A stretch of DNA of 62,978 nt, counting the filler, from Stramenopiles sp. TOSAG23-6 (Eukaryota): NCBI GenBank assembly GCA_900128565.1. It is 13 parts of 13 records of this genome, joined end to end, with 100 filler letters (N's around TTAATTAATTAA, not from the genome) between each part and the next. Parts side by side here need not be neighbours in the genome. Positions count along the whole stretch, not along the records: positions 1 to 6,436 come from LT636699.1; positions 6,537 to 12,972 come from LT636700.1; positions 13,073 to 19,507 come from LT636701.1; positions 19,608 to 26,031 come from LT636702.1; positions 26,132 to 32,553 come from LT636703.1; positions 32,654 to 39,065 come from LT636704.1; positions 39,166 to 45,570 come from LT636705.1; positions 45,671 to 52,060 come from LT636706.1; 5 more parts are not named here. One strand, written 5' to 3'. This document shows, piece after piece, positions 2 through 62,855 of the stretch. A program made the position numbers and the translations under genes. Positions within the stretch are counted from its first letter, which is position 1; each line of letters begins with the position of its first letter. Below the pieces are notes generated by a model. That model worked only from the letters and a program-made list of their open reading frames with translations, made no database searches and was not told where the DNA came from.

Positions 2-1504
2 GAATATGTAGCAAATGAAGCTTCGGGAAAACACATTGTACGACGGCTAGAAAAAAATAAGAAGAATACAAATACATTGAAGAAGAAAGACAACAAGAGT
101 AAGGTTCGGGTAGAGCATAAAAATGGTAATGTGAAAACAAATCTTGATCACAGTTTCATATCTGGAGTTGAGGTTGAACGCAGTGACATCACTAACTGTA
201 TTCAGCATATAAATAGGGCAACTGATGATTGGAAATTTAAAATTGAGCAGATACAAAAGTTGACACATTTTGTGAAGCGAAGTGAAGAACATCCAGAATT
301 GTGGACAAAAAAAATATTAGTTCGTGTTATCAGTCCTTTACTAATTTCACAAGTACGCGATCTACGTTCAACTGTAGTACGCGCCACATGTGATTTGATA
401 AATGCAATTATGGAAATTCTAAAGGCAAAAGCACGATTTATACTTCGAGAACTGTTTCCAGTAATATTTGATATTGTAGGGAGTGGTAACTCTGTAATTG
501 CGGACTATGCGCGAAATTCGTGTGTTTCTGTAGTAAAGCATGTACATGCTACAATAACATTACTCTGCATTTCAAATATGGCAACATCATCTAAAAATTG
601 TTCAATTCGTCTTCAAGCGATAGAATTATTTCATATTGTAATTAATACATGGGAATATTCAAAGATCAATTCTCAGGCACAACTTTTACAAAATACATTA
701 CAGGTAGCACTTGATGACGTATCTGGTGAAGTTCGTAAAAAAGCAAGACGATATTTTGTAAAGTACAGCAATCTTTTCCCTCAAAGAGCTGATAATATAT
801 GTACGTTTTATATGAATTTCTAATTTAATTTTTTTTCATACGGAATTTCGTACCTAACGATTTTAATTTTTGAAATATGTTTTCATAATATATGCCGCAT
901 GGTCACAGGTCGCACTGCGAGATTACTAGATAAAATGAGTATAAAATCTTTACAATTAGGCTTAAAAGATGACAAATTTCCTCCAAACATTCCAAATAAT
1001 AATTTACTTGAGCCTCCTAAGCGTCTTTTAGCTTCAAAAAATAATGATCTTGAATGTAGTGAGAAGACTTCAAGTAAAGATAAAAATCTTTCAATAAAAG
1101 GTGAAACATTTACTGACAAAAATGGATATAAAAAGAATAATTCAATAAAAGGTGAAACATTTACTGACAAAAATGGATATAAAAAGAATAGTTCAAGTTC
1201 GATTAATTTTATCCGACGACTTGGAAAACAAATACAAATTGCACACAAATTACATATTGAAGATATGATTTGTTCACTAGGTAAAGAATTGAAACTTATG
1301 GAGGATTTTGAGGAAAAAATGAAGATGGAAGGAGAAAATTTCATTGACGGAGAAAAAAAAATACATGGCGATGTTGTTGCATATGCAATTGAAATGACAA
1401 AACGCTTAGAAACACGTCAAATGATGAATGAAATTTCCGGCAATGCGTTGAGGAAGCTAGCTTCGGAAACAATACGATTGGGAACAACTTCATCATCTTT
1501 ATAA
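2..1504 (+). CDS. CLASP/TOG (HEAT-repeat) domain protein, 5'-partial; exons 2-800, 894-1504
   Basis: DLRSTVVRATC, RLQAIELF and ALDDVSGEVRKKAR are CLASP_N-like motifs; frame open to the window start; intron 801-893 joins ADNI-C-RMVTG in frame. Confidence 0.7.
801..893 (+). mobile_element. Repeat-family intron, GT...AT
   Basis: GTACGTTTT start, TTTCGTACCTAAC core, TTTCATAATATAT end; AATATATG present at both junctions; removal restores frame. Confidence 0.8.
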
Positions 1505-1626
1505 TGGAAACTTTATAAAATGGCTTTAACCACAAGTACAAGGTTTCAATTTTTGAAATGAAAAATAAAATTTAAATATTTTTTTTGATACGAAATTCCG
1601 TACCTAACATTTTTTTTGTCTACTTT

Positions 1627-2375
1627 TTATTTATGTTTCCGTCGAGAATAACCATTCAGTGGAGCTTTATCTATATAGTTGAGTCGCAGAGCTTCAGATA
1701 GGTGCGAAGAAAATAGGCCTTTTTGTCTAGCATGTACTGTGAAGAAATTATAGAAAACAGAAAATTCGTTAAGTACGCAATTTCCTATGAAAAAAAAAGA
1801 TTTGAAATGAAAGATGAAAAGTGAAATTTTTTTTTTTTAATTTGTTAGGTACGGAATTTCGTACTAAAAAAAAACTAAATTCGAAAAATTGAAAAAAATA
1901 AACGTACATGTATTTTCAGTAATTTCTTTTCTTCCTCCGAAACTAAATGTCCAGAATACGCCAAGTCTTCTTGCATTGCCGTTTTGTGTGGATCTGATCC
2001 TCGAAGAATGAAGAGCGAATTTGCCATATTTGTGGAGGACATTCCATGCGGTACTCCTGACACTGTTTTACGTGTTTGCTGAGCGAGGTTTTTTCGTTTA
2101 TTGTATATGTCACGAGATCTATGTTTTATATAATATTTCCCCCTTTTTTTTTTATTCTTTTTTGTCATTGATAACTTTGCTTTTATTTCTTCCAGTTCTG
2201 CAGTTAGTTGGTTGCGTCTAATGTTTAACTCATCCACATCAACAACTTTTTGTCTTGTATCCTCCACATCAAAAATCTTCTGGTTGTCCGCCATGGGCGG
2301 CTCACCTGGACTATCTGATTTATGTTCTATTTCATGGGGATATGCTCCATGTACACGCTGTGGGTGTAAAAACAT
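1627..2375 (-). CDS. Hypothetical protein; exons 2375-1908, 1731-1627
   Basis: ORF ends in intron-family sequence; removing 1907-1732 (GT...AT) gives LKIH-ARQKGL...HK*. Confidence 0.55.
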
Positions 2376-2795
2376 AATACCTTTGAGAGTGTACTGTTGG
2401 GTTGGTCTAAGTTAAAATCAAAATCTTTGGATGATCACAGATCAGATCTTCAAACAAAATGTAAGACAATTCGGATTCTCTCAAACCTCTCAAACGTTTG
2501 ACTACTGGATTTTTATGACCGTTTCATCCTTTTCAGTTNCTTTTTTTTTTNCTTTTTTTTTTTCAGACTGAGTCTCCGACGACCTCACATACAATTATCA
2601 ATCTTAAGTCTTGACTTGTGTGTTTTGCATCAACGAAAGAGACGACACATTCTTAAACTAAAAGAATATTCACAAGTCTATTAGGACCTATACATATATA
2701 TATACAGAATCTGGAACTTTGAACGGTTCTACCACTTATTAAAGTGTTATAGAATAAAGTTAACTTCAGAACCCTAACCCTAAACATATAGTAGA

Positions 2796-3038
2796 ATGTC
2801 TAGCGACTCTAGTCAGAAAAGTATCTTAAATGCTGAAAGTCTTGAGGCCCTGAACAAGCAAGTTGAAGAAATGCAAACATCAGATAAAGAGTGGATACAC
2901 TACCACCCTGACTTGGAAAAAGTTATATCTTTATTTGTCAAAAACGTCCTGAGAGAGCAGCCGGAAAACATCAAAGATTTTGCAGTCGAATTTTTCACGA
3001 GTGAGAATCTAAAGAGCATGGTCAAGAATTCTCCTTAA
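2796..3038 (+). CDS. RIIa/DPY-30 docking domain protein (RIIAD1-like)
   Basis: HPDLEKVISLFVKNVLREQPENIKDFAVEFF matches the RIIa D/D pattern. Confidence 0.7.
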   Translation: MSSDSSQKSILNAESLEALNKQVEEMQTSDKEWIHYHPDLEKVISLFVKNVLREQPENIKDFAVEFFTSENLKSMVKNSP

Positions 3039-3183: not shown

Positions 3184-3226
3184 CCCTAAACCCTAACCCT
3201 AACCCCTAACCCTAGTACCCTAACCC
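3184..3226. repeat. Interstitial telomere-type (CCCTAA)n tract
   Basis: ccctaaaccctaaccctaaccctaaccctag...ccctaaccc. Confidence 0.85.
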
Positions 3227-6631: not shown

Positions 6632-8992
6632 AATTTTATGAAATTGGTGAAATAATGAAAATGTACAAATGTGCTTAAAAATGAATCACATAAATCTAAT
6701 GTTGTAGAGGATGATGAACACAATGATGTTAATAATTCAATGATTGTGCCAACAGTGCTACTTGGCCATTTATATGACAAGTCAATTGGATTATGAATGT
6801 GTTCCTATATTTGTAGAAAATATTTCAAAATTTAAAAAAATATTTTGTTAGGTACAAAATTTACTACGAAAAAAAAAATGAAAAAAAAATGAAAAAAAAA
6901 TTCCAAAATTTTTTTTAAACAAAAGATAAAAAAAGATAAAAAAAATATTCTTATTACAACACGTACCAACATTTTTGGTGTCATATGCCGGGGACACAAA
7001 ACTGTTTTCATAATTGAATATAAAATGTTTTGAACTCTTTCATCACTTTTTTCAATTTTTTCACTTTTTTCAATTTTTTCAATTTTTTCAATTTTTTCTT
7101 GATGTTGTCGACAAAATCGAACATGAATTATTTTTTCACGCCCATTACCGGGTATCAGCTGGTCAGGCACATTTTCTATAGTAAAACCTAGTAAAGATGC
7201 AATTTCTCTACTTATAGTAGGGTCATACGGTAATGTTTCAATAAGCATGTATTTTGGAAAAATATTTCAAAAAAAATCTAAAAAATTTCGTTAGGTACAA
7301 AATTTCGTACGAAAAAAAAAATTCGATTTTTTTGTAAAAAAAATAAAAAAATAAAAAAATAAAACATACATACTATCAAGACAATCAGCAACAGATAAAA
7401 TTTGTTCGGTAAAAATAAAAGGTTGAAATTGTTTTTTTTTTTTTTTTGAAATTTTTTTTTCTTCTTCTTTTGAAATTTTCGTTTTTTTTGGACTTTCTTG
7501 ATTAGGATTAGGGTTAGGGTTTTTTAATGCAGGTATGCATTTCATTACTAAATTCCACATCCCTACATAATCAATGACATTACTTGTATCAATAGCATGA
7601 TATCCATTACTTCCAGGTTGTTTTAAAGGAATTTCCATACAATGGTAAAAAAATATTTGAAAAAAAAATTCAGAATTTTTGTTAGGTACGAAATTTTTTT
7701 ACGAGATTTTTTTTACGAAAAAAAAAAAAAAAAAAAAAATGTAGGATAAAAAAATACATGCAATTACCAAATGTAAAAAAACAGCGTATTGTATTGTTTT
7801 TGACAGATTTTTGTAGACGAATAAATAATGGTGTCCAAACATTTTGAAGCGTTTTCGCAAATGAAGGTGAACCCACCATATTATCGATTGCATTGCTTGT
7901 ATTGGTTGTAGTAGAGTTAGGGTTAGGGTTAGGGTTAGGGTCGTCGAAAATTTCGTCACTAGTTAGTGATGCAAAAGCGCCAACAGGCCCTTGACATTCT
8001 AAATATATGGCATGCTGTTTGATCCCATCGATATCATCATTCGATATTTCAAAATTTTCAAAATTACATGTAGAAAGTATTGTGAAAAAATATTTCAAAA
8101 TTTACTATAAAAAAAAAATTTGTTAGGTATGAAATTTTTTTACGAAATTTTTTTACGAAAAAAAAAAATTTAAATTTGAAATTTAAATTTGAAATTCATA
8201 TAAAACGTACAACATCAAATAGAGTTGGGTTTATATACGTCACTGTAGTGTTTGTGAGGGAAGAGTCAACGGAGGAAACCCCATGTTTAAGCCAATCTAC
8301 AAGAAGATGTGATAAACGTCCATGACCTGCACTTTGGTCTGAGAGTCTTTTTGCACGTACATAAATTATGAAAAAATATTTCGAAAAAAAAAATCTAAAA
8401 AAAATTGTTAGGTACAAAATTTCGTACGAAAAAAAAAATCAAAAAAAAAAAATTCAAAATTGAAATGAAAACGAACTTGTAATAATTTTTTTGTGTTTGT
8501 TTGTACAGATTTCAAAGATAAAATCGTACGCCATGCAATCCAATGTTGTTTCATAGCACTTAATGTCTTTTTATCTGTTCGAATCCATGAAGGGATTTGT
8601 TCAATTAATTGACACAAGGTTTTAAAAAGTTGAGAAAAAGTTTCTTCATTGAGCAAGACATCACTCCAAATAGCTGTTGCATATTGTATACTCAACTCTC
8701 CTTCAGATGCCAAGGTGATCAGTACCACATTTCGTGCAAGGGCAATCGAATTTAAGTCATTGAAATGTAGTTCAACTCGTGCTTCTGATGGAATATTTAT
8801 CAAAGTGGTGAGAGGGTTTCGTATATCACCAACTCCAATCCAAAGCAATTTGATGGGTGTTGCGTTACATAAACTTTGTACTTCTTCTTTTGTTAGCAAG
8901 CTGCGAGCAAATGTATTTCCAATAAGAAAGCCACTCATCACACTATCGACAAGCTTACGTCGTGCAAGACTAAATGGTTTAGAGTACACCAT
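6632..8992 (-). CDS. DUF4470-like domain protein, 3'-partial; introns 8476-8361, 8210-8075, 7757-7637, 7369-7247, 6966-6805, next starts 6631
   Basis: LLWIGVGDIRN, HFNDLN..ARN and DTSNVIDYVG motifs; five family introns fuse the ORF fragments in frame. Confidence 0.65.
8075..8210 (-). mobile_element. Repeat-family intron, GT...TT with TT duplicated at the 5' flank
   Basis: GAT GTT|GTACGTTTT...CACAATACTT|TCT ACA; in frame. Confidence 0.7.
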
Positions 8993-10265: not shown

Positions 10266-12881
10266 TTACTCTTCAAAAGTTGTACATTGACTAAATTGAC
10301 TGATAAAAGAAATATGACTTAAATCACTCAAATGATCATTATGCAGTTGCTCATTTCTATCAATAAAACATGAAGTAATAAAATCTCTAATAATTTTGAT
10401 ACTCTTTAAAAGTTCAAATAATTCAGTGATTTCATTAGGGTTAGGGTTATTAGGGTTAGGGCTATTATTTCCATTATTTTCAATGCATTTTGAAGAATTC
10501 GTATTTAATTTCGTACCAATTTGTTGAAGAATTTCACCCCATAATTGTAGAACATACGAAATCTCAACTGAATGATCAAAAATTTCATCATTTGTTGTTG
10601 TACACGAATTATTTTGTGTTTTTTGTGTTTTTTTTGTTTTTTTTGTTTTTTGTGTATTTCGTGTTTTTTGTGTCTTTTGTTGTTTTTTGAATTGATTCAA
10701 TGCAGAGTTTGATGTTTTTTTAGAATCATTGGAATTATACTTCTTTTTATTAGGAGTTTTTATACGAATAGGAAGAGATTTTATATCCAAATTATTCTTT
10801 TGAAATATTGTACCATTAGGGTTAGGGTTAGGGTGTAATGAGTGATTTTCATTTTTTTCTAATGTTTGCCATTCCTTCTTAAAAACATCAGGATCTTGTT
10901 TTTGAAGTGAAATAATATCATCCTCAACTTGTCTATATTCTTTAATCAATCCATTGGATATTGAATTCCAATGAGATTGCATTTGACTCATTTGAAGTGA
11001 ACGATGACGAAATAATCTACTTTCATGTATTTGGGAAAAATATTTCAAAAAAAATTTTGAAAATTTGTTAGGTACAAAATTACGTACGAAAAAAAAATTC
11101 GATTTTTTTGTTAAAAAAAAAAATAAAACATACAGCAAGAATTTGTGAAATGATAATATTTCGTGCAACTTGCAAAGAATATTGACTTGACTCAGTTCCA
11201 TCTTTACTTTTCATACTAGTGTTTTGATATGATATTGAATTGTTAGGGTTGGGGTTAGGGCTATAATTTTTTTTTTTTCCATCATTTTTTGTATCATTTT
11301 TTAAATCATTTTTTGTATTATTTTTTGTATCATTTTTCAAATCATTTTTTAAATCATTTTTTAAATCTTTTGTTAATTCAGAAAATGAAAACTTGACATG
11401 AGGGAAACGACCTATATTTTGGAAAAATATTTCAAAAAAAAATCTAAAAAAAATTGTTAGGTACAAAATTNNNNNNNNNNNNNNNNNNNNNNNNNNNNNN
11501 NNNNNNNNNNNNNNNNNNNNNNNNNNNNNNNNNNNNNNNNNNNNNNNNNNNNNNNNNNNNNNNNNNNNNNNNNNNNNNNNNNNNNNNNNNNNNNNNNNNN
11601 NNNNNNNNNNNNNNNNNNNNNNNNNNNNNNNNNNNNNNNNNNNNNNNNATTTTGGAAAAATATTTCAAAAAAAAATCTAAAAAAAATTGTTAGGTACAAA
11701 ATTTACTATAAAAACCAAAAACCAAAAACCAAAAAAAAAAAAATCGAATTTGAAAAAAAATTGAAAAAAAATAAAACAAACTTGTGAATTTTTTTTCCAA
11801 GACTATAGAGGACAAATAAGAAAAAAGCATATACATTTTTTTTTCAATATCTATTTTTTGTTTTAATCCATTTTTCAAGAATACCAAATGCTTTGGGAGT
11901 ATACCATCAGCTACTAATGTTTTTAAAGATTTTTGAGCGACGCGGTTGAAACTGCTAATTTGGAATTTATCTGTACATGTATTGTGAAAAATATTTTTTT
12001 TTTAATAAAATTTGTTAGGTACGAAATTTCGTACGAAAAAAAAAATAAATTCGAAATTGAAAAAAAATTGAAAATAAACGTACATGATCTTTCATCAATA
12101 TTATTCTCCTCCAAAATATTATCCATCCAATGTGCAAGTTTAGTTAATTTTGCCTCTTTTAATTTTTGACTTTGGTCTCGTTTTTTCATTTCTAATTTTT
12201 TTCGGATTCTGGGGAGTGAGACTTTCCTATATACAATGAGAAATTTTTCTGTCAGACTGTTTTCATTTTCTAGAGATATTTCGTGTTGTTGTTCGAATAC
12301 TTCATTTTGTTTTTGATGACTATTTTGTGTACTACGTCTGGTGTTCAATTCTGATTTAACCAGACTATACGGTTTGAAAATTTTTCGAATTTTTTTTTGG
12401 TATTTTTTTTTGTTAGGTACAAAATTTCGTATGAAAAAAAAAATTTCAAAAAATTTCAAAAAATTTCAAAAAAAAAAAAACGTACATTTCAATTGTATCA
12501 TAAAATTCATTCCAACGACAAAACCCTTCATTAAATGAATCACAAATTTTGACTAATTCTTTTTTTTGTGAATTTGGTAATTGAATATTAATCATTCTAC
12601 AAATTTTATCAATGGCAACACGAAATACTTTATTTGTCATACACTTTTTTGGAATTGATTTTGCTAAATCCATGTATTTTGGAAAAATATTTCAAAAATT
12701 TTCTAAAAAAAAAAATTTGTTAGGTACAAAATTTCGTACGAAAAAAAAAATTCATACAAAAAACCTCGGCCTAAAACTTTGACTACTTCAATATCATCAA
12801 TTGTCATTTTTGCAAAGGCATTGCGTTGATGTGTTGCATTCGCTTCATTATATGCGCACCATTTATCCCAAAAATGTACCA
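10266..12881 (-). CDS. Multi-exon hypothetical protein, 5'-partial, EF-hand-like segment; introns 12757-12672, 12485-12365, 12083-11977, 11133-11025 and others around the N gap
   Basis: ORF fragments fuse in frame after removing family introns; DSFNEGFCRWNEF resembles a degenerate EF loop. Confidence 0.55.
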
Positions 12882-13339
12882 ATGTATTGTAAAAAATATT
12901 TTTTTTTGATTTTTTTTGTTAGGTACAAAATTTCGTATGAAACAAAAATAATTAGACAAAAAATTGAAAAAANNNNNNNNNNNNNNNNNNNNNNNNNNNN
13001 NNNNNNNNNNNNNNNNTTAATTAATTAANNNNNNNNNNNNNNNNNNNNNNNNNNNNNNNNNNNNNNNNNNNNAAAAAAAAAAAAAAAAAAAAAAAAAATT
13101 GTACAAAAATTTTGTACCTAACAAAAAAAAAATTCATTCATTTTGAAAAAAAAAATTTTTTTTTTTTTTTCACAAAATTGTAAGAAATATTGTATTTGAA
13201 AAAAAAAAAAAAAAATTTTGAAATTTTGAAATTTTGAAATTTTGAAATTTTTTTAACCATTTCGAGTTGTAGTACATTTTGTACTTGACAAAAAAAAAAA
13301 AAAAAATTTGAAATTTTGAAATATTTAAAAAAAAAATTA

Positions 13340-13537
13340 ACAAAAAAAAAAATTGAAATATTATTTCCAACCCATCTACATTTTCAAACACCTTTCGAAT
13401 TGTCACAATATGTCATAATAGATCCTCAATGGCTAATAAATATGACAACATGTGTCATCCGAGATTTTAATATACACGAAAAACGAAAAGATAAAAAAGC
13501 ACGAAAAATGTATTTTATTATAAAATGAATTTCATTG

Positions 13538-13570
<33 letters not shown>

Positions 13571-15451
13571 TACCAAAATTTTGTACCTAACAAAAAAAAA
13601 ATTCATTCATTTTGAATAAAAAATATTTTTTCACAATAAATGTTGACACTATGGAAAGATCTTTGTCAATTTGGGATTTTAGATCAAAGATTATTACATT
13701 TTTTATGGAATGAATATGATGAAAAAGTCCGCTCATTTATGTTGGATTTATTGTATGTTTTTTTTTTTTTTTAATTTTGTTTTTTTCGTACGAAATTTTG
13801 TACCTAACAAAAAAAAAAAAAAAAAAAAATTGAAATATTTTTTCACAAAATAAACATCATTTTGGTTTAGTTTGTCGCATTGATGTGAATGAAATGAAAT
13901 ATTTACTTCCTTCCATCGCTTTACGGAACAGACCTGTACAGGAAAAGAAAACACCAAATGTCCAAAATTTTGAAAAAAATATTGAAAAAAATTTTGAAAA
14001 AAATATTGAAAAAAATATTGAAAAAAATATTGAAAAAAATATTGAAAAAATTTCCTATACATTTCGTATACAATTTCAATCATCACAAAATCAAATTTGT
14101 TTACCTCCTGGATTTTTTGAGAGATTAATTGCTGGCGTTGTCCGTCGTTCACATGAAAGTTGCTGTATGTTTTCATTTCAATTTCGAATTTTTTTTTTCG
14201 TACGAAATTTTGTACCTAACAAAAAATTTTAGATTTTTTTTTGAAATATTTTTCAAAAATACATGGGGACGTAGCCAAAAGCCTATATTTGGTGACAGGT
14301 TTGTCCAAATAAGTTTTGGTGAGAATTCGTTTGAGATTGCTCCTGTTTATATTGAAAACATTTCAATTTTGAATGTATTAGGTATGGAATTTCATAGTGA
14401 AAATTCTCAACATGTTGTTGCAAGTATTTGTGTGGCAGTATTGACAGGTTCGTTCCAAAAGATTATTGATGAAATTCTTTATATTGCAGTAGATATATAT
14501 GTTTTATTTTTTTTCAATTTTTTGTCTAAATTTTTTTTTTGTAGGAAATTTTGTACCTAACAAATTTTCAAAATTTTTTTTTGAAATATTTTTACAAAAT
14601 ATATTGATGCTTCCTTTTTTAGTGGTTGTCTTGAACCATGTTTGTTTGTATTATTCAGTTTTTTTTTTTAGTTTTGTACCTAACAAAAATGTTAAAAAAA
14701 AAATTATTTATTTTTGTCAAAAAAAAAAAAATTTTTTTTTTATAGTAAATTTTGTACCTAACAATTTTTTTAGATTTTTTTTTGAAATATTTTCTCATTC
14801 TATATTTGCAATTTTAGAATTACGTAATCAAAAATGTACTATTAATAATACAATATATAGTCCATCTAACCCTAACCCTAACTCAATGAAAGGATTTAAT
14901 GCAAGACATCCTCAATGTAATGTCATTGCTGAAATAAATGCAAAATCTGCTGAATTTGATTTAAATTGTCAAAAAAAAAAATTTTGGTGTTGGGACAAAC
15001 CTGCTGGTGTTGAAAAATTATATGATGGTGTTTTATTTACACATTGGTTACTTGAGGAAGATTCTACTACTACTAACCCTAACCCTAGTAATTTTACTAC
15101 TACTACTAATAATAATAATAATAATAATAATAATTCTAATGATATTGATACTACTAACCCTAACCCTAGAGAATGTAAAGACAAAAATATTTTTTCTAAT
15201 GAACCGGGTATCTCGGAGTTATTTTCATTAGGGTTTTTATTTCATTCAAAAAAAACGCCATTTTATAGAGTCAAAAAAATATCTCAATCATTATTAGGAA
15301 AAGGAGCTTTTGGTAAAACATATTGTGTATCAAAATTAAACAATTCTACTACTATTGATACTACTACTACTAATAACAATAATACTAACACTAATACTAA
15401 TAATAATAATAATAATATTGATGATGATAATATTGATATTACTATTACTAA

Positions 15452-15610: not shown

Positions 15611-17302
15611 TGACGTCATTTTCTATCAAAACAACAGTACTACACGAAATCTCCAAAAGCTTAAAAAGGACAATATTCATAATGACGTCATTCTATATGC
15701 GATGAAAATTGTTGATATTTCACTTTTATCTAAACAAAATGGCGCATCTATAAAAAATCTTCACAAAGAAATTCAAATACTTCAAACATTGTATGTTTAA
15801 AAAAAGTGAATTTCAATTTTTTTTTTGTAGTAAATTTTGTACCTAAGAAAAAAAAAAAAAAAATTATAGAAAATTAACAAATTTCAAATGTAAAATATTT
15901 TGTTACAAATACATACAACATAAAAATATTGTCCAATTATATGACGCATTTTGGTGCTCCTCTGGTTTCATTGTACAACACACGAAAAACCTACAAAATA
16001 GTACAAAACAAATTTATAATTCTTGTTTGTTTCCATCAATTATTTCAATTTTTTTTTTTTTCATAGTAAATTTTGTACCTAACGTTTTTTTTTTTTTTTT
16101 TTGTGAAATATTTTCCCTAAAATTTATTATGTTTACAAATGGAACTTTGCGATATGACTTTGCTTCAATTGATTAATAATGGACAATATAAAGGTATACC
16201 AGTGGTACCAAATATTACAAAAATGTTTTTAATTCAAATTGTTGATGCATTGGCGTGGGTTTTATTTATTTATATTTTTTTTTTAAATTTATATTTTTTT
16301 TTTAAATTTTTTTTTTTAAATTTTTAAATTTTTTTTTAAAATTTTTTTTTTCAAAAACTTAAAATATAATTCTATCTTCAATATCACTACACAATATATA
16401 TATATGCATGCCAATGATATAATACATCGTGATATTAAATTAGATAATATTATGATTGTCAATTCGGAAACTATAAAAATTTGTGATTTTGGTCTCGCAA
16501 CTAAAATTTACCCTTTAAATAAAAATGTGAAAAATATAAATGATGATACACTTGATATGAAAACTTTACAATGTCAAAGAGGTCATATTTGTTATCGAAG
16601 TCCTGAAAATATAATGTTTGTTTTCATCACTCATTTAAAAAAAAAAAAAATGATGAATTTTTTTTTTTTTTTATTATTTTTTTTTAATTATTTTATTAAC
16701 TTAAAATTTATCGTCAATACATATATATATTTTTTTTTGAATTATTTCATGTCAACTTAATGTATCATTAATGTTGTAAGATATATGTTTTTACTGTACA
16801 TGGGGTTTACACTTGACTATGGTGATGATATCTGGGCTTTAGGGTTGTACGTTTTGTAAAAAAAACAAAAAACATTTTGTAGTAAATTTTGTACCTAACG
16901 ATATTTTGTACACTAAAAAAAAAAAATATTTTTTCACAAAATTGAATTATTGTTGAGTTATTGACAGGTATGACAATTGTTCACAGAATACGTCGTAACA
17001 CGAAATATCAAGATAAATTTAATCCTGGTTGTTGTTACCCAGCGGTTAGAAATACAATTTTATTACAAGATTTAATAAATGAGGTAAATGAAATTGTTAC
17101 AACAGTACAAATCGATAACCCTAACCCTAGGAGTACTACAGGAGTACAAATTGATAACCCTAACCCTAGGAGTACTACAGGAGTACCAATCGATAACCCT
17201 AACCCTAATGTTTCAATGTTATCAAATTTTGTACAGTATTGTTTAAATATAGATGCAAAAAAGAGATGGAATGCTAAAAAATTATTAGAAATATTGAAAT
17301 AA
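13340..17302 (+). CDS. COR-like plus Ser/Thr kinase (Roco-like) protein, 5'-partial (start approximate), 10 reconstructed introns
   Basis: VIIDPQWL and LPPGFFERLI (COR-like); LGKGAFG, YAMK, LQHKNIV, HRDIKLDN, DFG, SPE, DIWALG; introns 13510-13641, 13753-13853, 14165-14264, 14497-14604, 14640-14805, 15791-15914, 16025-16127, 16255-16399, 16616-16801, 16847-16944. Confidence 0.75.
15340..15610 (+). repeat. (AAT)n/(ACT)n low-complexity tract encoding poly-N/T
   Basis: Seen directly; lies between the kinase Gly-loop and the YAMK lysine. Confidence 0.9.
15791..15914 (+). mobile_element. Repeat-family intron, GT...AT
   Basis: ACA TT|GTATG...AAATACAT|A CAA CAT gives the conserved kinase L-x-H-x-N-I-V. 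Confidence 0.85.
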
Positions 17303-25965: not shown

Positions 25966-26182
25966 ATGTATTTTGTAAAAATATTTCAAAAAAAAAAAAA
26001 CTAAAATTTGTTAGGTACAAAATTTCGTACGNNNNNNNNNNNNNNNNNNNNNNNNNNNNNNNNNNNNNNNNNNNNTTAATTAATTAANNNNNNNNNNNNN
26101 NNNNNNNNNNNNNNNNNNNNNNNNNNNNNNNACGAAATTTCGTATGAAAAAAAAATTAAATTAGAAATTCATATAAAACATA

Positions 26183-45569: not shown

Positions 45570-45723
45570 GNNNNNNNNNNNNNNNNNNNNNNNNNNNNNN
45601 NNNNNNNNNNNNNNTTAATTAATTAANNNNNNNNNNNNNNNNNNNNNNNNNNNNNNNNNNNNNNNNNNNNTACGAAATTTTGTACCTAACGATTTTTTTT
45701 TGAAATATTTTTCCAAAATACAT

Positions 45724-46246
45724 TACTACACTCAAGGCAATGGTTAATGTCGCAAATGAGGGGAAGGAGGATTCATCTAAAAATCTCGAAATTTGTGCTG
45801 CCTCTGGTATCACCGAAGATAATGTAGTTCATTTGGCTGAAAGTAGCGGTGTTGCTTCTGTTCATGTACGTTTTCAAAATTTGTTTTTTTACCTATTGTT
45901 TTTTTCATAGAAAATTTCGTACCTAACGATTTTTTTTACCGAAAAAAAAATATTTTTCACTGTACATGGTTCCTTTCGTACTCGAGTAAATGGTAGAATG
46001 CTCTGGCGACGACAAAATCTTCCACCGGTTCATATGGGTCAAGGGTTGGAAAATAGTAATGCAGAAAGTGATCATACTGAATATACTCTTAAAGTAGCCT
46101 GCGAAGATCGCATTCGCGTTGTTGTGTCTGATTTACATGAATTAGCTCTTAAACAAAACAGAAATAAAAAAAAAGCTGGTACAAGTTGGGTTGATATCGA
46201 TGGTGGTTATAACAGTGATGAATCTGATAATGTCAGCGTTGAGTAA
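45724..46246 (+). CDS. CutC-like copper homeostasis protein, C-terminal part; intron 45866-45967
   Basis: ICAASGITEDNV..L....GV.SVH-GSFR...M.WR...VHMG...EY pattern. Confidence 0.7.
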
Positions 46247-46450: not shown

Positions 46451-49400
46451 TTAATATAATAGCATTCCACCAAGACCAAATTTGATCGTAGTACTTAACC
46501 GAGATCTCATCATAGACAGCGAAGTGTACGCAGGTAATTCTAATGTAAAGAAACAAGTGTGTGATATAGGTAACGAAGAAAGACTGCCTTCCATTCTTGT
46601 AATTGTCAAGTGATGTGACCAAGTGCCACGTGGTAATCTATTTCTACCCCAAGCAAATCGAATAAATCTGCTTCGTTCCTCATCGTCCCAATCATTCATT
46701 ACTTGCCAGAAGAATTTTATTGTAGGATCATTGTGCTTATATCCACGATACTCGGTATGTTGCTGAAGGATACTCACAGACACTTCCTCTCGGCCACAAC
46801 ATAATTCCTCTAGTTCTCTTGAAGTAAATAAACGTAGTAATCTACCTGGGACAATAGTAAACAATCCTCGACGAATGGCAAGAATTTGTATATTAAGTAT
46901 TGTGAAAAAATATTTTTTTTTACGAAAAAATAAATCGTTAGGTACGGAATGTAGAACGAAAAAACAAATTTAGGTAAACAATTCAATTTTGAAAACATAC
47001 AAATTCTTTCATTCGTGTTTTTTCTGCAAGTTCAAGATATCGTTGGCGTTGCTGCCACGAAACCTGAACGTCCCGACCACCATCATATAATTGAGATTCT
47101 GATCCATTTGCCAGAGTAACTACAAAACGTAAATCGCCAAAATCATCTTTGAAGTCAGATTCAATTTCACTCACAAGATCAGCAGCTTTTATCACTTTCT
47201 CCTGGGCCTCTTCAGAATGTCCAGACAATTTCAATGTTTTTGCTTCTTTGTTTAATCTACGAATTAAATCTTCATCATCTTCTCTATATTCCTTTGAAGC
47301 CTTTAAAAATGTCACAAAAACTTCATCAATTCCTGATAAATCGCGTGTCTCGATGTCTTCATCAAGAATCGCTTTCCATATTACAGGAGGAAAACAGAAG
47401 GGAAGGCTTGCCTTTGTTCTCAAAGAAATTCCTAATAATTTACCAATGAATTCAAACATACGTATATGTTTCGGTGATGCAGCTGCCGCATTTGGAACAT
47501 ACGCATCTTGATTTTGACCTATCTTTTGGACCCCATTTGGGCATAGAATTAACAAGTTCAAGTCATTCGAAAATAAGTCTTCGACCATTTGAGTGATTGC
47601 TTCCCTATATGGTCCTCCAGCATCCACAGCACGTTCACCAGCAAATTTTACGCTGAATACATGTTCATGATGCCGTAATTGACTTGGAGGGCGTTTGTGT
47701 AATTGGCGAAATGCTTGAGTAAATAAGCAATTAGACAGTGTGGCTTCAGTCACACCATCTTCCTTGGACTTGATTGCTTTCTGACGATCTAAGCGAAGTG
47801 ATACGCTAACACTGCTTGTAGTTGATTTCAAACCACTCACTAACAAACTAGATTTGACATCCGCAAAAACAAGATATGCTAAACTACGCAAAAGAAAACC
47901 AAAACTCCATTCACACTCAACCTTTGTAAGATCAATTAAATGTACCACATTTGATAATAATTTGTTAAAATTCAATATTATAGAAAAACGAGTCGCGATA
48001 TCTTGAGTATTTTTATTTGCCAAGCGTTGAAATTTCATTTTGTCTTTTATCGAGATTTGAGATAATTGCTGGGGTGAAGCATGAATTGTGAAAAAAAAAA
48101 TTCTAGTAAAAAAATCGTTAGGTACGAATTTTCATTGTAAAAAAAAATCGAAATCCTATTTTGAAAACGTACATGAAGTGACATATGCCTGTAGTGATCC
48201 TGAGGAAATCTTTTCCCCTGACAAGCTGACTGTTGTTCGACAATATTATTATGCATTCGAACTAATTCTGCATCATCTTCAAAAGTCCAATTTTTGGGTA
48301 ACGAATTAATGGAATTAATGAGGCTATCGCGAGCTTTACTCGAATTTCTTTCCTTTTTCAATAATAAATTCATTATTTTCTTTGCCGGACGTCTGGTATT
48401 GGAAGGATTTGAACTTACTTTCATCAATTGTCTCATGAATTTATTTAATTTTGCCGCGCGAATGTTTGCCGCAAAACCCCATAGTGAATCAGTGTTTTTA
48501 TCACCTCCGTCAATTGTGACAATCAGAACCTCACCTTTCATTTTCATAGTTTCCTCTATAATAAGTTTATCTGTTCTAATAAAACTATGATTTGATAATT
48601 CAAGTGTCTCTTTTCGTTTTGTTATTACGCGTTTTGTATCCGCTACAGACCATGATACTTCAACACCTGACATTTTCATGTCTTTTGTATACGGAAGATT
48701 TTGTAAAATATCACGACAATCCGGAGAAATATCTTCATTCTTGCATTTTTCCAAATATGCTTCGGCCTCTTTTTCAGTTTTGAAACGAAAATATTTTGAA
48801 GTAGAGTCATTTTTTATTTTACTAATTATCTTGCTAGATGATCGAAAAACCCCAATTTTCCTACCCTGTGTTATAGCATACCAAGAACCTTTTGAAGCAG
48901 AAATACTCTTTTTTTCTGTAGAGATCTTATCCGTTGTATCCTTATTTTGTGTTGATTCTGTGTTTTTCTCAATGTTTTTATTCGTTTTACAACTATTTGG
49001 ATTTTTAGGATTTTTAGGATTACTCATTGCACTTTTTTTAGAAGGATCGATTATTTCGCATTTGAATGATTGAAGAATTAGAGTTGCGTCCGGTGTAATC
49101 CTTGATCTAAGATCGAAATCTATTTCCATAGAATCACCACCTGCCACATGTATTTTGGAAAAATATTTCAAATGTTTTTCGTTAGGTACAAAATTCGTTA
49201 GGTACAAAATTTCGTACGAAAAATAAATTCGAAATTGTAAAAAAAGTAAAACATACATGAGCATAATGAAACTGAATTCGATCTTTTGAACCTATTTTTC
49301 CAGAAGAATGAGGATGTACAGATTGCATAAACCCACCGCCTCTCATTTCAAGTGCAGCCGCATAAACAAAAGATTCTTGAAAATTTTTCGTCTTTTTCGT

Positions 49401-52060
49401 CTTGTGGGGCGTACTTTGACATAAAAGTCCATTCATTACCGATACAGCTTCATACAGTTTTTGAGATTCTGAAGGTGGCGGAACTTCTTTTGATTCTCTA
49501 CTTGACACAATTGCTTCTAACTCAGGCCAATGAGAATAAATAAACTTTATATGTTTGCTTTCTGTTTTTAAAAAGGATTTTGAAGCATTTGAAAGACGTG
49601 AACACATAAATTTTCGAGCAGTTACAGAAAGTTCGAGTAAACTTTGTAATCGAGATGGTAAAAGTTCACAACTCTGCTTGCGATTTCGAGAATCTCGCCG
49701 TGAATCTAATGTTGCTCGTATACATCTTTTTTCTGCATCACTTCCGATCTGTTGCACAACAGATATACACGAAATTGGAAATCCGATTCCATCACCAGGA
49801 AACAAATTGGGTCGTTTAAGAAGTTGGGTGAGTAAAGCGACCACGCGGTTTTTATAAGGCGCCCCAGACGTTCGCAGATATCGTAATAAAGCTTCAACAA
49901 CAGCAGGTGTATGTATTGCGCGGCGAATTTTATCATCGCCTTCAGATAAAAGAAATTCCAAGACCCAACAAGCCCATTCCAAGCAAGACTCTTCAACAAC
50001 TTCCAATTCTGAAAGCCATTGAAGACCATTTATTGGTGAACAATATTTATTGTAGTCAAAACAATTGTTAGGTGCAAAATTTTGTATGAAACAAAATTAA
50101 TTTAAAATTAAATTTGAAATTGATGATGAAAACGTACATGAATTGGCGAAACAACAAATTTATATCCCCACCCATGTTCACTATTATTTGGCTTATTTGA
50201 TGAAAATGACACCCAAAATTTTTCTTGGTGGATTATAAATGCACGCCACTCCGACGATGAAGCTGAATCTCTCTGGGAATCAATACTTGATCCTTGCATA
50301 CTTGCAATCAAATTACTTTTTCCTTTATCCGCCCAAAATTTTAAAACACACCCTTTCGCAGTTTCACAACGGCGGTCAAATGTCACACGGACAGCTTTGG
50401 CAGCTGAAAAACTCACGGCAAATAAGTAGTTACATGTTGATACAAAAGGGTGTAAAGATTCATACGTTTTGATAGATTTAGTTTCTTGAGACGTCGATTG
50501 TAATAAATGAGATGTACACTGTCTCACTAATTCCGATCCAAGAGTACCGACTCGTGATTTTGCTGTAGGACTTTTTTCATTTTCAAGATGTTTCATCTGA
50601 ACATTAGGTGCTTTGGCCTTCATTGTAGGATTCATCGATAGTGATAATGCAAAAGATAAAGCTTCACTTTCATCCTCATCACTACTCTCCACAACATCAG
50701 CATATTCCGCAGTACTTGATGAGCTTGAATTCGTATGTATATCATCAATTTCATCACTTTTTTGTTTATCACTCTCATGACTATTTATATCATCATCTCT
50801 ATTGTGTTCAATGTCAGTATATATTACTTCGTCTTCAAGCATCTCACGAAGAACTGTACGAAGAGATGAAACAATGGAGTCATTATCCCCATGAACAACA
50901 TTTTCCGCGGAAACATTTTCGTCACTTTCAGACGAATTTTCATCCATGGCAATTTTTCTGTCACCATTAGAACTTTTCTTTTTCTTTTTAATATTTTGCT
51001 TTCCATTCAAGCCTTCTGCAGCAATCAAAAATTTGCATACAGTCACAAATTTTTCCATAGACTTTTTCGCACCACATAAAAATGTTGATTTTCTATGCTC
51101 GCGAGGCCACACACGTAATAGATTAACTAATGTTTTTCGTGCATAATTCACACCTAAAGCAGAAATGGTTCGTAACATTCCAGCTTGTATAGATCGTATT
51201 CCACCACCAAAAGGGCTTCCAAATATTTCTAGAGGTCGTTTCAAGCAGCTGGCACGAAATGTGCGAGTACTCCCAAATCCAGAATCTTCATTTAAGATAC
51301 GTACCTGGCAGACCCAATCGCTTTTTTTTGCAGCGGTGACTGTCGTATCATCCTGAGGTACATTTCGATCAACAACTGCGTTATATTTATTTATCAAAGA
51401 GGCGGCATAAACATCTGGGCCACAGGACAATAAAACACCAATACTGGCATCACTTGTACTTGGACAACTACTGTTTACAATATTACCAGCTATGACAATA
51501 GATCCAATATACGCACGAAGTTCAACGCCATGTAAGGGCAGCGATGAAAGTTTCATTTCTGATATATTGCAGAAACCTTTGCTACTGTTCATTTTACTTG
51601 CACCATTAGCAGAATCCGGTTTATTATTATTATCACTCACACTAACCTCGCTTGAATGTAGTAATAAAGGATCAACTTCAGTCATATCCTCGAATGCCGC
51701 ATCATTGCTTTCTTCAGATCCTGTTTTCCCTTCTTTTTTACTTTCACGATGTATTGTGAAAAATGTTTTTTTCTTTCGTTTAAAAAATCGTTAGGTACAA
51801 AATTTGGTACAAAACAAATCTAGGTAAAAAAACTCAATTTTAAAAACGTACATCATCTTCTCGAAAAGCTTCTAAATATCGACCACCTGCGTCAATGACC
51901 CAATTTGTCGCTGAACTAACGTGACCATTAAACATTTCCAAAGCTCTAAAACAAAGACGTGGCGGGAAATTTGACAATTGAGCCATTTCAAGACTCATTT
52001 CCCATCTCTTTTTATCCTTTCCTTCATGCCCACCACCTACTTCTTTTGCACCCTTCATGA
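46451..52060 (-). CDS. Large HERC-like HECT E3 ligase, 5'-partial; introns 51851-51749, 50137-50028, 49256-49148, 48172-48081, 47000-46895
   Basis: FAGERAVDAGGPYRE, FIRFAWGRNRLP, LPISHTCFFTLELPAY; UBA-like segment upstream; all five introns restore frame. Confidence 0.88.
46895..47000 (-). mobile_element. Repeat-family intron, GT...TT with duplicated TT
   Basis: GAA TTT|GTATG...CAATACTT|AAT ATA CAA gives RMKEFNIQILAIRRGL, matching the HERC-type R..EF..Q..A.R.G pattern. Confidence 0.8.
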
Positions 52061-58478: not shown

Positions 58479-58637
58479 GTATGTTTTATTTTTTTTCAAA
58501 TTCGATTTTTTTTTCGTACGAAATTTTGTACCTAANNNNNNNNNNNNNNNNNNNNNNNNNNNNNNNNNNNNNNNNNNNNTTAATTAATTAANNNNNNNNN
58601 NNNNNNNNNNNNNNNNNNNNNNNNNNNNNNNNNNNCT

Positions 58638-59646: not shown

Positions 59647-59868
59647 NNNNNNNNNNNNNNNNNNNNNNNNNNNNNNNNNNNNNNNNNNNNTTAATTAATT
59701 AANNNNNNNNNNNNNNNNNNNNNNNNNNNNNNNNNNNNNNNNNNNNTAACTACAAGAACTACAAAAGTATATTATTCTTAATAATGTGTTTTCATTACAT
59801 ATGAAAGATCAATATTAAGCAGTGGTAGTATATACACAAAAGAAGTGAAATCTCCATTTTCATTGTGG

Positions 59869-60609
59869 ATGGAAGACGAGGAGTCACAAATAGACGAAAT
59901 ATCTGCAATTTCTGCAATATTTGGACAACAAAATGTGAACATTGTACAAAATACACCTCCACGTAGTATTATTATTACTATTGAGTCCCCTTTTGATTCT
60001 TGTCAACTATGTTTATCTCTTGAAATGATCTTACCGACAAATTATCCATCTCGTGAAGCACCAATTTGTAGTGTTTCCGTAGTGTCAGGATGTCATGACT
60101 CATCACTTGTATCGTTTGCCCATACTGCTCCGGAACAATTATTCAAGTTATTTGAACCAGGATCAGTCGCTATGTTTGATTATTGTACATATTTAAGAGA
60201 CAATTGGCCATCAATAAAAGTCAGTAAAAAGAATTTCAATCCAATAAATCCAATAAATCCAATAAGCAGCAACAACACTGAAATCGAGTTCTCATTAGAA
60301 ACAAAAGCTAATCCGAACGCTAACCCAAAATATCCAAAATGTACAAGTAAAACACACACTGCCATGGATTCACATTATAATAATGATAATAATGATAATA
60401 ATGGTAATGATATGGCTAATGGCTTTGAAAAAATAAAAAATAGTCAATCACAAAAATCAAAAAAAAAATGGAATTTTTTTTCTGGTCAAATTGTGAAAGT
60501 AAAAAAAAGTAAATTTCAAGCTCACTGTGTTAAAGTCAATTCATGTGATGATGTGAAAAATGCAATGGATAGTTTATTGAGTCATAAAAAAATATCACGT
60601 GCAACACAT
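59869..60609 (+). CDS. IMPACT/Yih1 (RWD + UPF0029), 3'-partial
   Basis: EISAISAIF and LPTNYPS (RWD); KKSKFQAH...KISRATH; family intron starts at 60610. Confidence 0.85.
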
Positions 60610-60979
60610 GTATGTTTTTTTTTTTTTTTTATGAATTTTTTTTCGTACGTAATTTCGTACCTAACAAATTTTAACACATTTTTTTTTTTTTTTTTTTTTT
60701 TTGTATGAATTTTTTTTCGTACGTAATTTTGTACCTAACAAATTTTAGTTTTTTTTTNNNNNNNNNNNNNNNNNNNNNNNNNNNNNNNNNNNNNNNNNNN
60801 NTTAATTAATTAANNNNNNNNNNNNNNNNNNNNNNNNNNNNNNNNNNNNNNNNNNNNTAACTACAAGAACTACAAAAGTATATTATTCTTAATAATGTGT
60901 TTTCATTACATATGAAAGATCAATATTAAGCAGTGGTAGTATATACACAAAAGAAGTGAAATCTCCATTTTCATTGTGG

Positions 60980-61720
60980 ATGGAAGACGAGGAGTCACAA
61001 ATAGACGAAATATCTGCAATTTCTGCAATATTTGGACAACAAAATGTGAACATTGTACAAAATACACCTCCACGTAGTATTATTATTACTATTGAGTCCC
61101 CTTTTGATTCTTGTCAACTATGTTTATCTCTTGAAATGATCTTACCGACAAATTATCCATCTCGTGAAGCACCAATTTGTAGTGTTTCCGTAGTGTCAGG
61201 ATGTCATGACTCATCACTTGTATCGTTTGCCCATACTGCTCCGGAACAATTATTCAAGTTATTTGAACCAGGATCAGTCGCTATGTTTGATTATTGTACA
61301 TATTTAAGAGACAATTGGCCATCAATAAAAGTCAGTAAAAAGAATTTCAATCCAATAAATCCAATAAATCCAATAAGCAGCAACAACACTGAAATCGAGT
61401 TCTCATTAGAAACAAAAGCTAATCCGAACGCTAACCCAAAATATCCAAAATGTACAAGTAAAACACACACTGCCATGGATTCACATTATAATAATGATAA
61501 TAATGATAATAATGGTAATGATATGGCTAATGGCTTTGAAAAAATAAAAAATAGTCAATCACAAAAATCAAAAAAAAAATGGAATTTTTTTTCTGGTCAA
61601 ATTGTGAAAGTAAAAAAAAGTAAATTTCAAGCTCACTGTGTTAAAGTCAATTCATGTGATGATGTGAAAAATGCAATGGATAGTTTATTGAGTCATAAAA
61701 AAATATCACGTGCAACACAT
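60980..61720 (+). CDS. Identical duplicate of the IMPACT contig (likely redundant contig)
   Basis: 60858-61868 appears identical to 59747-60757. Confidence 0.7.
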
Positions 61721-62049
61721 GTATGTTTTTTTTTTTTTTTTATGAATTTTTTTTCGTACGTAATTTCGTACCTAACAAATTTTAACACATTTTTTTTTTT
61801 TTTTTTTTTTTTTGTATGAATTTTTTTTCGTACGTAATTTTGTACCTAACAAATTTTAGTTTTTTTTTNNNNNNNNNNNNNNNNNNNNNNNNNNNNNNNN
61901 NNNNNNNNNNNNTTAATTAATTAANNNNNNNNNNNNNNNNNNNNNNNNNNNNNNNNNNNNNNNNNNNNTTTTTTTTTTTTTTTTTTTTTGGTTTTTATAA
62001 AAATTTTGTACCTAACAAATTTCCAATTTAATTTTTTTTACAATACATG

Positions 62050-62855
62050 CAAGTATAGTTTTACAATGTTATTATGTAATTTTGTGTAAATTGAATTCAA
62101 ATAGAAAAGATAACAGTCTTATTCGATATGCAGTAACACGAAATATACAAATGAAAACATTAATTGCATGTACGTTTTTTTTTTTTTTTTGAAATTTTTT
62201 AATTTTTTTTTTCATACGAAATTTTGTACCTAACAAAAAAAAAAAAAAATTACAAAAAAAAATATTTTTTCATAATACATGGGTAAATATGTCAACCGAA
62301 GAATTTCAAAAAGTAAATGAAAAATGTTCAAATATTGAGGAAATGGTCCAAGAAACAACTCATTTAACTGATTTAAGTCAAAATGTTTCAACTAAAACTC
62401 AAATAACACCAAATATGGAAGCAATTGTTCAATCCAGTTTACAAATAATTCTCTATTATACAAAATGGTACAAAGAAAACCCACAAATTCAGAATGATGA
62501 AAATTTAATATCTAAAGAATCTCGATGCATGTATGTTTTTTTTTTTGAAATTTTGAATTGTAAAAAAAAAAAAAAAAAAAAAAATTTTCCAAAAAAAAAA
62601 AAAAAAAAAAAAAAATTCTTACAATAATTTTTTTTTTTTTTTTAAATTTTTAATTTTAAAAAAAAAAAAAAAAAAAAAAATTGTCCAACAATTTTTTTTT
62701 TTTTGAATATTTTCCAAAAAAACAGGATATCTACAGGTAGAATATTAGAGCTATCGACACCAGAGACATTTATCATTAAAATACTAAAGTCAACAATGAA
62801 TAAGGAAATTCGGTTTCATGTTGTACAATTTTATTTATTAATAGATTTACCAAAA
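62050..62855 (+). CDS. Internal exons of an unknown gene; introns 62170-62280 (GT-AT), 62531-62725 (GT-AG)
   Basis: Open exons bounded by family introns. Confidence 0.5.

Follow-up and report, generated by a model that had tools for sequence, protein, structure and literature searches.

The stretch analysed here (the window, 62,978 nucleotides (nt) including filler, from assembly GCA_900128565.1 of Stramenopiles sp. TOSAG23-6) is a size-sorted chain of contigs of approximately 6.4 kilobases (kb) from an AT-rich eukaryote, and represents several loci rather than one. The contigs are joined by linkers of the form N44-TTAATTAATTAA-N44, in which TTAATTAATTAA is a 12-nt spacer (6437-6536 and eleven more); the intervals between linkers fall from 6536 to 6475 nt and are then 1111 nt three times, and the two 1011-nt contigs at 59747-60757 and 60858-61868 are identical at 1011 of 1011 positions. 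The G+C content (GC) per 2 kb is 21-42%. The eukaryotic genes in the window include a DBP10/DDX54 helicase, two HECT ligases, kinases, and an eRF3/HBS1-like GTPase, together with CLASP-like, SLC12-like, bestrophin, ankyrin, HAD phosphatase, and IMPACT-like genes. Since TAA (16), TGA (5), and TAG (2) all end long reading frames, the genetic code looks standard. Many of these genes are interrupted by short inserts, which an earlier note on this DNA had described as introns ending in AT; they are copies of a single introner-like repeat, a point absent from that note.

The window contains the motif TACCTAAC 22 times on its + strand and 30 times on its - strand, always within a constant wider context. 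An nhmmer profile made from 18 clear copies (cut-off E<=1e-3) gave 52 matches in the window, four of which (two pairs) involve the duplicated 1011-nt contig, and the pairwise identity among the 18 aligned copies has a median of 73% (range 61-92%). The consensus opens with GTAYGT and a T-rich stretch, continues with a palindromic CGTACG core adjoining GTACCTAAC and a second T-rich stretch, and closes with a tail that ends in AATACAT. A perfect 12-nt palindrome, TTTCGTACGAAA, lies immediately 5' of GTACCTAAC, for example at 49204-49230 (-), and its RNA can fold into a small GUAC/GUAC hairpin next to the branch motif. This core palindrome could be bound by a protein involved in mobility, or its folding could expose the branch site.

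Inserts of the family are 86-176 nt in length; when two kinase introns that lack the core are counted, the introns are 86-186 nt (median 109) with a GC of 17%, and intron phases 0, 1, and 2 are represented by 14, 7, and 10 cases. The element-bearing genes are CLASP-like, DUF4470, kinase, two HECT, SLC12-like, HAD phosphatase, DBP10, CutC-like, and IMPACT-like genes, and the curated copies are all in the sense orientation of the host gene. Several contigs start or stop within a copy, as expected because repeats break assemblies. Tandem cores or whole copies were observed inside one intron at 1732-1907 (-), 49148-49256 (-), and 60610-60757 (+), which suggests that one copy can be inserted in another or can arise by duplication inside it. 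The copies and introns are listed below, with the basis of each call at the end of the line.

801..893 (+): GT..AT intron, 93 nt, in the CLASP/TOG-like gene, with an 8-nt direct repeat at the 5' flank and intron end; profile, frame, Pfam
1732..1907 (-): GT..AT intron, 176 nt, containing two element copies; profile, frame
6805..6966 (-): GT..AG intron, 162 nt, an element copy with the canonical end TATAG; profile, frame
7247..7369 (-): GT..AT intron, 123 nt, skipping an internal T-tract and AG; frame
7637..7757 (-): GT..AT intron, 121 nt, donor GTATTT; frame
8075..8210 (-): GT..TT intron, 136 nt, the 5' flank also ending in TT; frame
8361..8476 (-): GT..AT intron, 116 nt, donor GTTCGT, exon end AA, so that AT-AC and TG-CA cuts are impossible; frame
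11025..11133 (-): GT..AT intron, 109 nt; profile, frame
11412..11471 (-): 3' partial copy beside an N run, ending in TATAG; motif
11977..12083 (-): GT..AT intron, 107 nt, with a 7-nt repeat over both junctions; frame
12365..12485 (-): GT..AG intron, 121 nt; frame with the AG end
12672..12757 (-): GT..AT intron, 86 nt, of a short subfamily, donor GTATGA; frame
12883..12949 (-): 3' partial copy at a contig end, ending in ACAT; profile
13510..13641 (+): GT..AT intron, 132 nt; frame
13753..13853 (+): GT..AA intron with an uncertain end, picked by reading frame alone; frame
14165..14264 (+): GT..AT intron, 100 nt, skipping an internal AG; frame
14497..14604 (+): element copy without GT at the donor and with no frame fit; motif
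15791..15914 (+): GT..AT intron, 124 nt; frame
16025..16127 (+): GT..AT intron, 103 nt, in the kinase gene; frame
16259..16403 (+): GT..AT intron, 145 nt, without the core motif, colinear with kinase homologues; homology
16616..16801 (+): GT..AT intron, 186 nt, without the core motif, colinear with kinase homologues; homology
16847..16944 (+): GT..TG intron, 98 nt, colinear with kinase homologues; frame, homology
20038..20145 (-): GT..AT intron, 108 nt, in a HECT domain, net length fitting the HECT profile, skipping a T-tract and AG; homology
20425..20533 (-): AT..AT intron, 109 nt, net length fitting HECT, slides of +4 and +5 equally good; frame, homology
22285..22395 (-): GT..AT intron, 111 nt; frame
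25119..25206 (-): GT..AT intron, 88 nt, in the SLC12-like gene; frame, domain match
25966..26031 (-): 3' half-copy at a contig end, ending in ACAT; profile
26341..26435 (-): GT..AT intron, 95 nt; frame
33138..33254 (-): GT..AT intron, 117 nt, in the HAD phosphatase-like gene; frame
33604..33709 (-): GT..AT intron, 106 nt, in the HAD phosphatase-like gene, with a 7-nt repeat over both junctions; profile, frame
35540..35672 (-): GT..AT intron, 133 nt; frame
43503..43590 (+): GT..AT intron, 88 nt, in helicase motif VI of DBP10/DDX54, exon end TT; frame, homology
45671..45723 (+): 3' half-copy at a contig end, ending in ACAT; profile
45866..45967 (+): GT..AT intron, 102 nt, absent from a poly(A) RNA contig; RNA
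46895..47000 (-): GT..TT intron, 106 nt, in a HECT domain, net length fitting the HECT profile; homology
48081..48172 (-): GT..AT intron, 92 nt, with TTCAT (5 nt) at the 5' flank and intron end; frame
49148..49256 (-): GT..AT intron, 109 nt, the top match to the family profile; profile, frame
50028..50137 (-): GT..AT intron, 110 nt; profile, frame
51749..51851 (-): GT..AT intron, 103 nt, with an RNA contig crossing the 3' border unspliced; frame, RNA
58479..58535 (+): 5' half-copy (GTATGT...) at a contig end; profile
60610..60757 (+): 5' part of an intron with two tandem cores in the IMPACT-like (RWD/UPF0029) gene, the contig recurring at 60858-61868; motif, domain match
61999..62048 (+): 3' partial copy at a contig end, ending in ACAT; motif
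62170..62280 (+): GT..AT intron, 111 nt; frame

The 5' border of each copy was set at the consensus donor and the 3' border at the final base of the consensus tail, with reading frames being disregarded. Thirty-two of the 34 boundaries defined in this manner connect the longest upstream frame with the longest downstream frame, for which the chance expectation is one-third each. The two misses were 12485, later assigned GT..AG borders that end two bases further, and 14497, in which there is no GT at the donor. Intron 13753, one of the 32, was excluded from the counts that follow because its end was picked with the frame in view, leaving a curated set of 31. The first dinucleotide in this set is GT in 30 introns and AT in one, and the donor hexamers are GTACGT (14), GTATGT (10), other sequences starting with GT (6), and ATATGT (1). 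The last dinucleotide is AT in 27, TT in two, AG in one, and TG in one; those ending in AT do so as CAT (18), TAT (7), or AAT (2), and the first base of the downstream exon is G in 20 of the 31. Two copies, 20425-20533 (-) and 14497-14604 (+), have AT in place of GT at the donor (ATATGTTTT...); the former keeps the frame and the HECT alignment, while the latter is in frame in no simple register.

An AG at the intron end is near-universal, and is read by the small subunit of U2AF and once more in the catalytic centre, during the second step. Forty 3' ends are visible in the window when the curated set is joined by the two coreless kinase introns (both GT..AT), 12485 (AG), 13753 (AA, uncertain), and five partial copies that lose their 5' part to an assembly gap and end in ACAT (four) or ATAG (one). 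Across these 40, AT was found at 33, AG at three, TT at two, and TG and AA at one each; the AG expected at the acceptor of a U2-type intron is therefore present at only 3 of 40. The earlier note had counted 34, 3, 2, 1, and 1 of these ends by hand, which is nearly the same tally.

A CTAAC-like motif is present in 29 of 33 introns, and its A lies 33-51 nt (median 43) from the intron end, which agrees with the distance of approximately 30-55 nt given earlier for a branch-like motif. T-runs downstream of this motif are visible in the alignment of copies. In 10 of the 29 introns, including the homology-checked 20145, the stretch from the CTAAC motif to the actual end contains an AG that is not used; the skipped AG often follows a T-run, approximately 13 nt past the branch-like A, and its use would break the frame. 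Since nearer AGs are skipped in these introns, AG is not the mark of the end. Because AT, TT, TG, and AG are all tolerated at the homologous last position, the acceptor appears to be relaxed with a strong preference for YAT. Stop avoidance alone was also tried as a guide to the acceptor; it left 25-55 options per intron and did not fix the ends, because T-rich introns contain no stops.

The removal of the inserts restores conserved motifs as well as frames, as the earlier note had claimed: seven junctions are colinear with homologues, namely, one in DBP10, three in HECT domains, and three in the kinase. In DBP10, taking out 43503-43590 yields ...KLF/VHRVGR... (the slash marks the junction), with a spacing equal to that in all 81 homologues matched by motif search, 80 of which have the F at the junction. 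HECT introns were assessed with a profile from 87 homologues, against which every read-through pair of shifted borders was scored. For 47000-46895 (TT end), 20533-20425 (AT donor), and 20145-20038, the top-scoring cuts correspond to a net shift of 0, and the motif-defined cuts are within 1 bit of the top score. The outcome raised in the earlier note, in which nearby AG sites are used instead, is disfavoured by the same scores, since, among the readable GT..AG pairs found within +/-45 and +/-75 nt, the best for 47000, 20533, and 20145 fall short by 49, 13.6, and 11.6 bits, respectively. The kinase at 15915-17299, joined at 16258/16404, 16615/16802, and 16846/16945, aligns without gaps with several homologues across the HRD, DFG, APE-like, and DxWxxG regions, and this gap-free alignment validates the two coreless introns and the sole TG end.

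RNA evidence was obtained from four seawater metatranscriptome runs (two studies) that contain parts of contig 45671-52060. A contig from a poly(A) library (X3, record 17; 419 nt, depth 12.2, 4 differing letters) maps to 45809-45862 and 45965-46315 and omits 102 nt; the omission can be placed with 4 positions of slack, and the cut 45866-45967 is among the placements allowed. One of the five complete introns of this genomic contig is thus bridged by RNA, and the lack of cover elsewhere is uninformative. Another RNA contig (X2, record 15) crosses the 3' border at 51749 unspliced. A third (X4), of which 49 letters are unplaced, ends precisely where donor 47001 is predicted, and this is no more than a hint. 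The summed word depth of the element core reaches thousands in all three deeper runs, as expected because a high-copy intron sits in precursor RNA, although DNA carry-over may contribute. Apparent RNA joints that link distant copies were also considered, many of which were repeat cross-matches.

That the inserts are never removed, the genes being repeat-broken pseudogenes or products of faulty assembly, is barely credible on these data. The assembly is fragmented, many contigs break within copies, and P0121, the sole protein on record for its gene, extends into an intron; however, the frames are kept at 32 of 34 boundaries by copies that are all sense-oriented in the curated set, conserved motifs are restored gap-free at the seven junctions, and the RNA contig omits one insert exactly. 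P0121 is the only recorded protein of the HECT gene at 46986-48131 (-), with 351 amino acids, and was derived from a 2205-nt contig assembled from a public run. It continues past the donor into the intron, and its cluster has one member. This read-through implies that automatic gene calling truncates these genes at each intron.

The exact position of the cuts needs to be considered separately from the length removed. The upstream exon ends in T in 28 of the 31 curated introns and in the dinucleotide AT in 18; because exon and intron both usually end in (A)T, most cuts can slide by 1-2 nt without changing the mRNA. The same pieces might accordingly be removed at slid cuts, as AT..AC introns (U12- or U2-type) or TG..CA introns, and the RNA contig permits five cuts, AT..AC among them. 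We regard this as quite unlikely. In the -2 register the introns start with AT in 18 cases, TT in 8, CT in 2, and other dinucleotides in three, versus GT in 30 of 31, and the GT..AT register is preferred because it is the only one with near-invariant first two bases and a GTAYGT donor. A cut at -2 in DBP10 would change the conserved F to Y, and at 8476, where the exon ends in AA, a leftward slide changes the mRNA. U12-type introns have the donor RTATCCTT and the branch motif TCCTTAAC 10-15 nt from the end; TCCTTAAC does not occur in the window, RTATCCTT occurs five times in the window and never at an intron start, and the branch-like A of the present introns lies much further from the end, at the distances given above.

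Removal at the DNA level is another route to RNA that lacks an insert. Ciliate internal eliminated sequences are short and AT-rich, with direct border repeats and short inverted ends, and the present inserts resemble that architecture in being short and AT-rich, with short direct border repeats and inverted ends (GTAT...ATAC); the RNA contig would then represent a rearranged somatic genome. This explanation appears to be highly improbable. Donor and branch motifs would have no role in it, and the frames end at standard stops, as counted above. The abundance of the core in RNA libraries and the unspliced exon-intron contig also speak against it, albeit weakly, as DNA carry-over is possible.

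A GTAYGT donor and CTAAC motif are marks of recognition by U1/U6 and by U2, respectively, and their strictness here points away from a non-spliceosomal excision guided by the pairing of intron ends, as proposed for euglenid, hemistasiid diplonemid, and Amoebophrya introns, which we consider to be very unlikely. In 5 of 8 folded copies, the GUAU/GUAC start can pair with the bases before the last AU, and direct border repeats also occur in Amoebophrya introners (PMC7789003). Nevertheless, the borders of the present introns are uniform rather than variable, and the eight folded copies are weak, with energies of -7.8 to -16.6 kcal/mol, z-scores of -0.13 to -3.11, and 4-5 terminal pairs; due to this weak folding, a euglenid-like structure-guided route was not seen.

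The borders also carry information on how the element spreads. Summed across introns, the suffix common to the 5' flank and the intron end reaches 70, whereas 20,000 permutations gave 52.6 +/- 4.4 (P=0.00025); dropping the longest case raises P to 0.004, and when no length above 3 or 4 is counted P is <=0.0008. Examples are the 8 nt at 801, TTCAT at 48172, and the 7 nt spanning the junctions at 12083 and 33709, and both TT-ending introns have TT at the 5' flank as well. In total, the direct repeat measures 0-9 nt (mean 3.3), and in every case it agrees with the end-to-start junction of the element itself. Inverted ends measure only 4-5 nt, and a clear terminal inverted repeat was not found among the element copies. 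Since the repeats vary in length and match the end-to-start junction, a transposase with a fixed stagger does not fit. Insertion would leave a direct repeat of 0-9 nt matching that junction, and spread may occur by a very short target duplication, by microhomology-mediated integration, or by reverse splicing into look-alike sites.

Taken together, the copies form one family, the length removed is exact, AT, TT, TG, and AG are tolerated as ends, and AGs nearer to the branch motif are skipped. We consider it probable that the inserts are U2-type spliceosomal introns that were spread by an introner-like element and are cut at a non-AG, mostly YAT, acceptor. Each copy brings a yeast-like donor (GTAYGT, then a T-run), the palindromic core adjoining a CTAAC branch motif (context TACCTAAC), and a T-rich tract followed by the conserved tail ...AATACAT. 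The excised piece would run from the G of GTAYGT through the T of the AATACAT tail, and the acceptor is YAT instead of YAG because the piece ends at this T. Cutting would be performed by the U2 spliceosome, the second step of which would accept U as the last intron base opposite the first G, while the early recognition of the 3' end would proceed via the T-tract and tail rather than AG. The proposal in the earlier note of a spliceosome with altered or relaxed acceptor specificity is thus supported by the RNA contig, homology, frames, skipped AGs, and GTAYGT and CTAAC motifs.

Several observations weigh against this interpretation. An additional YAT lies between the branch motif and the used end in 27 of the 29 introns, and, therefore, YAT alone cannot define the site; its choice may depend on the T-tract in combination with the conserved tail, on how far the site lies from the branch, or on 4-5 base pairs that the first bases can form with those before the final AU. 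Copies 20533 and 14497 are without GT at the donor, and 14497 is also out of frame. Homology determines how much is removed, but not which phosphodiester bond is cut. RNA support concerns one junction only and comes from an assembled contig, and thus an intron-less allele or paralogue is possible. Neither a transposase nor a fixed-length target duplication was found within the window, to which the search for a transposase was confined. Furthermore, the two coreless kinase introns carry family-like tails and may be decayed copies, in which case the AT rule is not extended to old, unrelated introns.

This last point bears on the scope of the phenomenon. Because the inserts are copies of one element, the AT end may be imposed by the element instead of being an old genome-wide rule. 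A genome-wide change of rule in the major spliceosome, in which the last intron base shifted from G to U under the drive of a mobile intron, has in our view somewhat less than an even chance of being correct. It would be expected to involve changes in how the first intron base pairs with the last and in proofreading by Prp18, Slu7, and Prp22, with the small subunit of U2AF being lost or re-tuned, and its driver would be a mode of insertion that fixes T at both the upstream exon end and the intron end.

Regarding the distribution of the element, scans of metagenome, genome, and viral contigs for the 22-nt core returned zero matches. With a degenerate 19-mer, 8 loci were retrieved, of which only one, L005, has a full-length copy. 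This locus is an unrelated metagenome contig (GC 35%), its copy has identical GT..AT borders, and the frame, which has 170 residues with the copy in place, has 214 once it is taken out. L001, the only further 19-mer locus that was read, is a coding repeat and, hence, a chance match.

Searches of the window for tRNA genes and small nuclear RNA genes found none present, and there were no splicing factors among its protein-domain matches. At a contig extremity just downstream of the DBP10 gene, positions 45452-45570 (-) hold a gene for 5S rRNA (Rfam RF00001, 85.6 bits). Telomere-type CCCTAA/TTAGGG runs are located in intergenic regions near gene starts (2771-2786, 3185-3232, 4063-4078, 29550-29570 (-), and others), with 24 hexamers on the + strand and 42 on the - strand of the window; they resemble the plant 'telo-box' promoter motif, and L005 likewise carries a telomere-type repeat in an intergenic stretch. 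In-frame repeats were noted in two host genes: a unit of approximately 39 nt with AACCCTAACCCTA, repeated three times, in the C-terminal coding part of the kinase gene (17100-17215), and a tandem duplication of approximately 57 nt in the last exon of the CLASP-like gene (1081-1190, +).

Homology searches retrieved DBP10 homologues of at most 62% identity and a best non-self HECT match of <=48% identity, and the HECT search found neither a close relative nor a spliced protein of this organism on record; the search with exon 48173-49147 returned zero matches. An atlas search yielded broad eukaryotic clusters only. In a single-gene DBP10 tree, in which branch support was not read and the placement is unresolved, the window sequence stands beside marine sequences, next to oomycetes and brown algae. 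A stramenopile-like affinity of the organism is possible on this basis.

If the present interpretation is true, introns of which approximately eight in ten end in AT while nearer AGs are ignored represent a natural experiment on how AG is read, and the system could reveal whether mobile introns push the spliceosome to new rules. If the genome-wide reading is true, this would be the first selfish element to rewrite a core splice-site rule. Gene finders and introner surveys based on GT-AG would miss nearly every intron in such genomes, and an abundant marine lineage would consequently be mis-annotated; prokaryote-style gene calling already reads through one such intron, that in P0121.

In the literature within reach, which did not extend to subscription papers and supplements, neither a GT-AT intron system nor this element was found to be described, and an earlier account may exist; a motif-based search retrieved primers only. 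Rare GT-AT borders are tolerated by a spliceosome in U12-type introns; the terminal dinucleotides are the same, whereas the present introns are without U12 donor and branch motifs and have a branch-to-end distance of 33-51 nt. In yeast without Prp18, 3' splice-site choice is relaxed and non-YAG acceptors are usable (bioRxiv 10.1101/2023.01.12.523824). This is a possible model for the acceptance of AT, although it concerns a mutant with alternative sites, whereas AT is the normal site here. Hemistasiid diplonemids have non-canonical introns with extensive end pairing (PMC12621601). The introners of Amoebophrya show no preferred terminal dinucleotides, have hairpin-forming inverted repeats of 8-20 nt, and occur in a genome with a GC of approximately 50% in which U1 was undetected (PMC7789003). 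Amoebophrya and the present organism are both marine protists with repeated introns and direct repeats overlapping the exon/intron borders, while the present introns differ in their uniform borders, weak folds, U1/U6-compatible donor, and a GC of approximately 31%.

Introners have been described in Micromonas, Aureococcus, and many other eukaryotes, with canonical ends in the described families (PMC12130899). They share with the present element near-identical short introns in unrelated genes, their own splice signals, and short border repeats, and differ from it in their ends, which are mostly AT here; the present element also showed no fixed-length target duplication or clear terminal inverted repeat, and no transposase was found in the window. 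The survey relies on annotated introns and sets aside families with unfamiliar ends unless they are supported by RNA (PMC12130899); an AT-ending family in an unannotated assembly would escape surveys of this kind because they need annotated introns. The closest working analogue is the larvacean Fritillaria borealis, in which less than 10% of introns are GT/AG, both ends vary, and a U2-type spliceosome removes introns with non-AG ends, including AU (PMC13326754). Duplicated, divergent U2AF subunits read these odd ends, and introner transposons with weak sites are discussed as their source (PMC13326754). The two systems have in common non-AG 3' ends, AU included, and removal that is of U2-type in Fritillaria and probably so here. 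Fritillaria is an animal and the present organism a protist, and, in contrast to the variation at both ends in the former, the donor here is GT in 30 of 31 introns and the acceptor mainly AT. Among known systems, the one described herein behaves like the U2-type splicing of introner-derived introns, yet departs from it in the AG by which such introns are defined.

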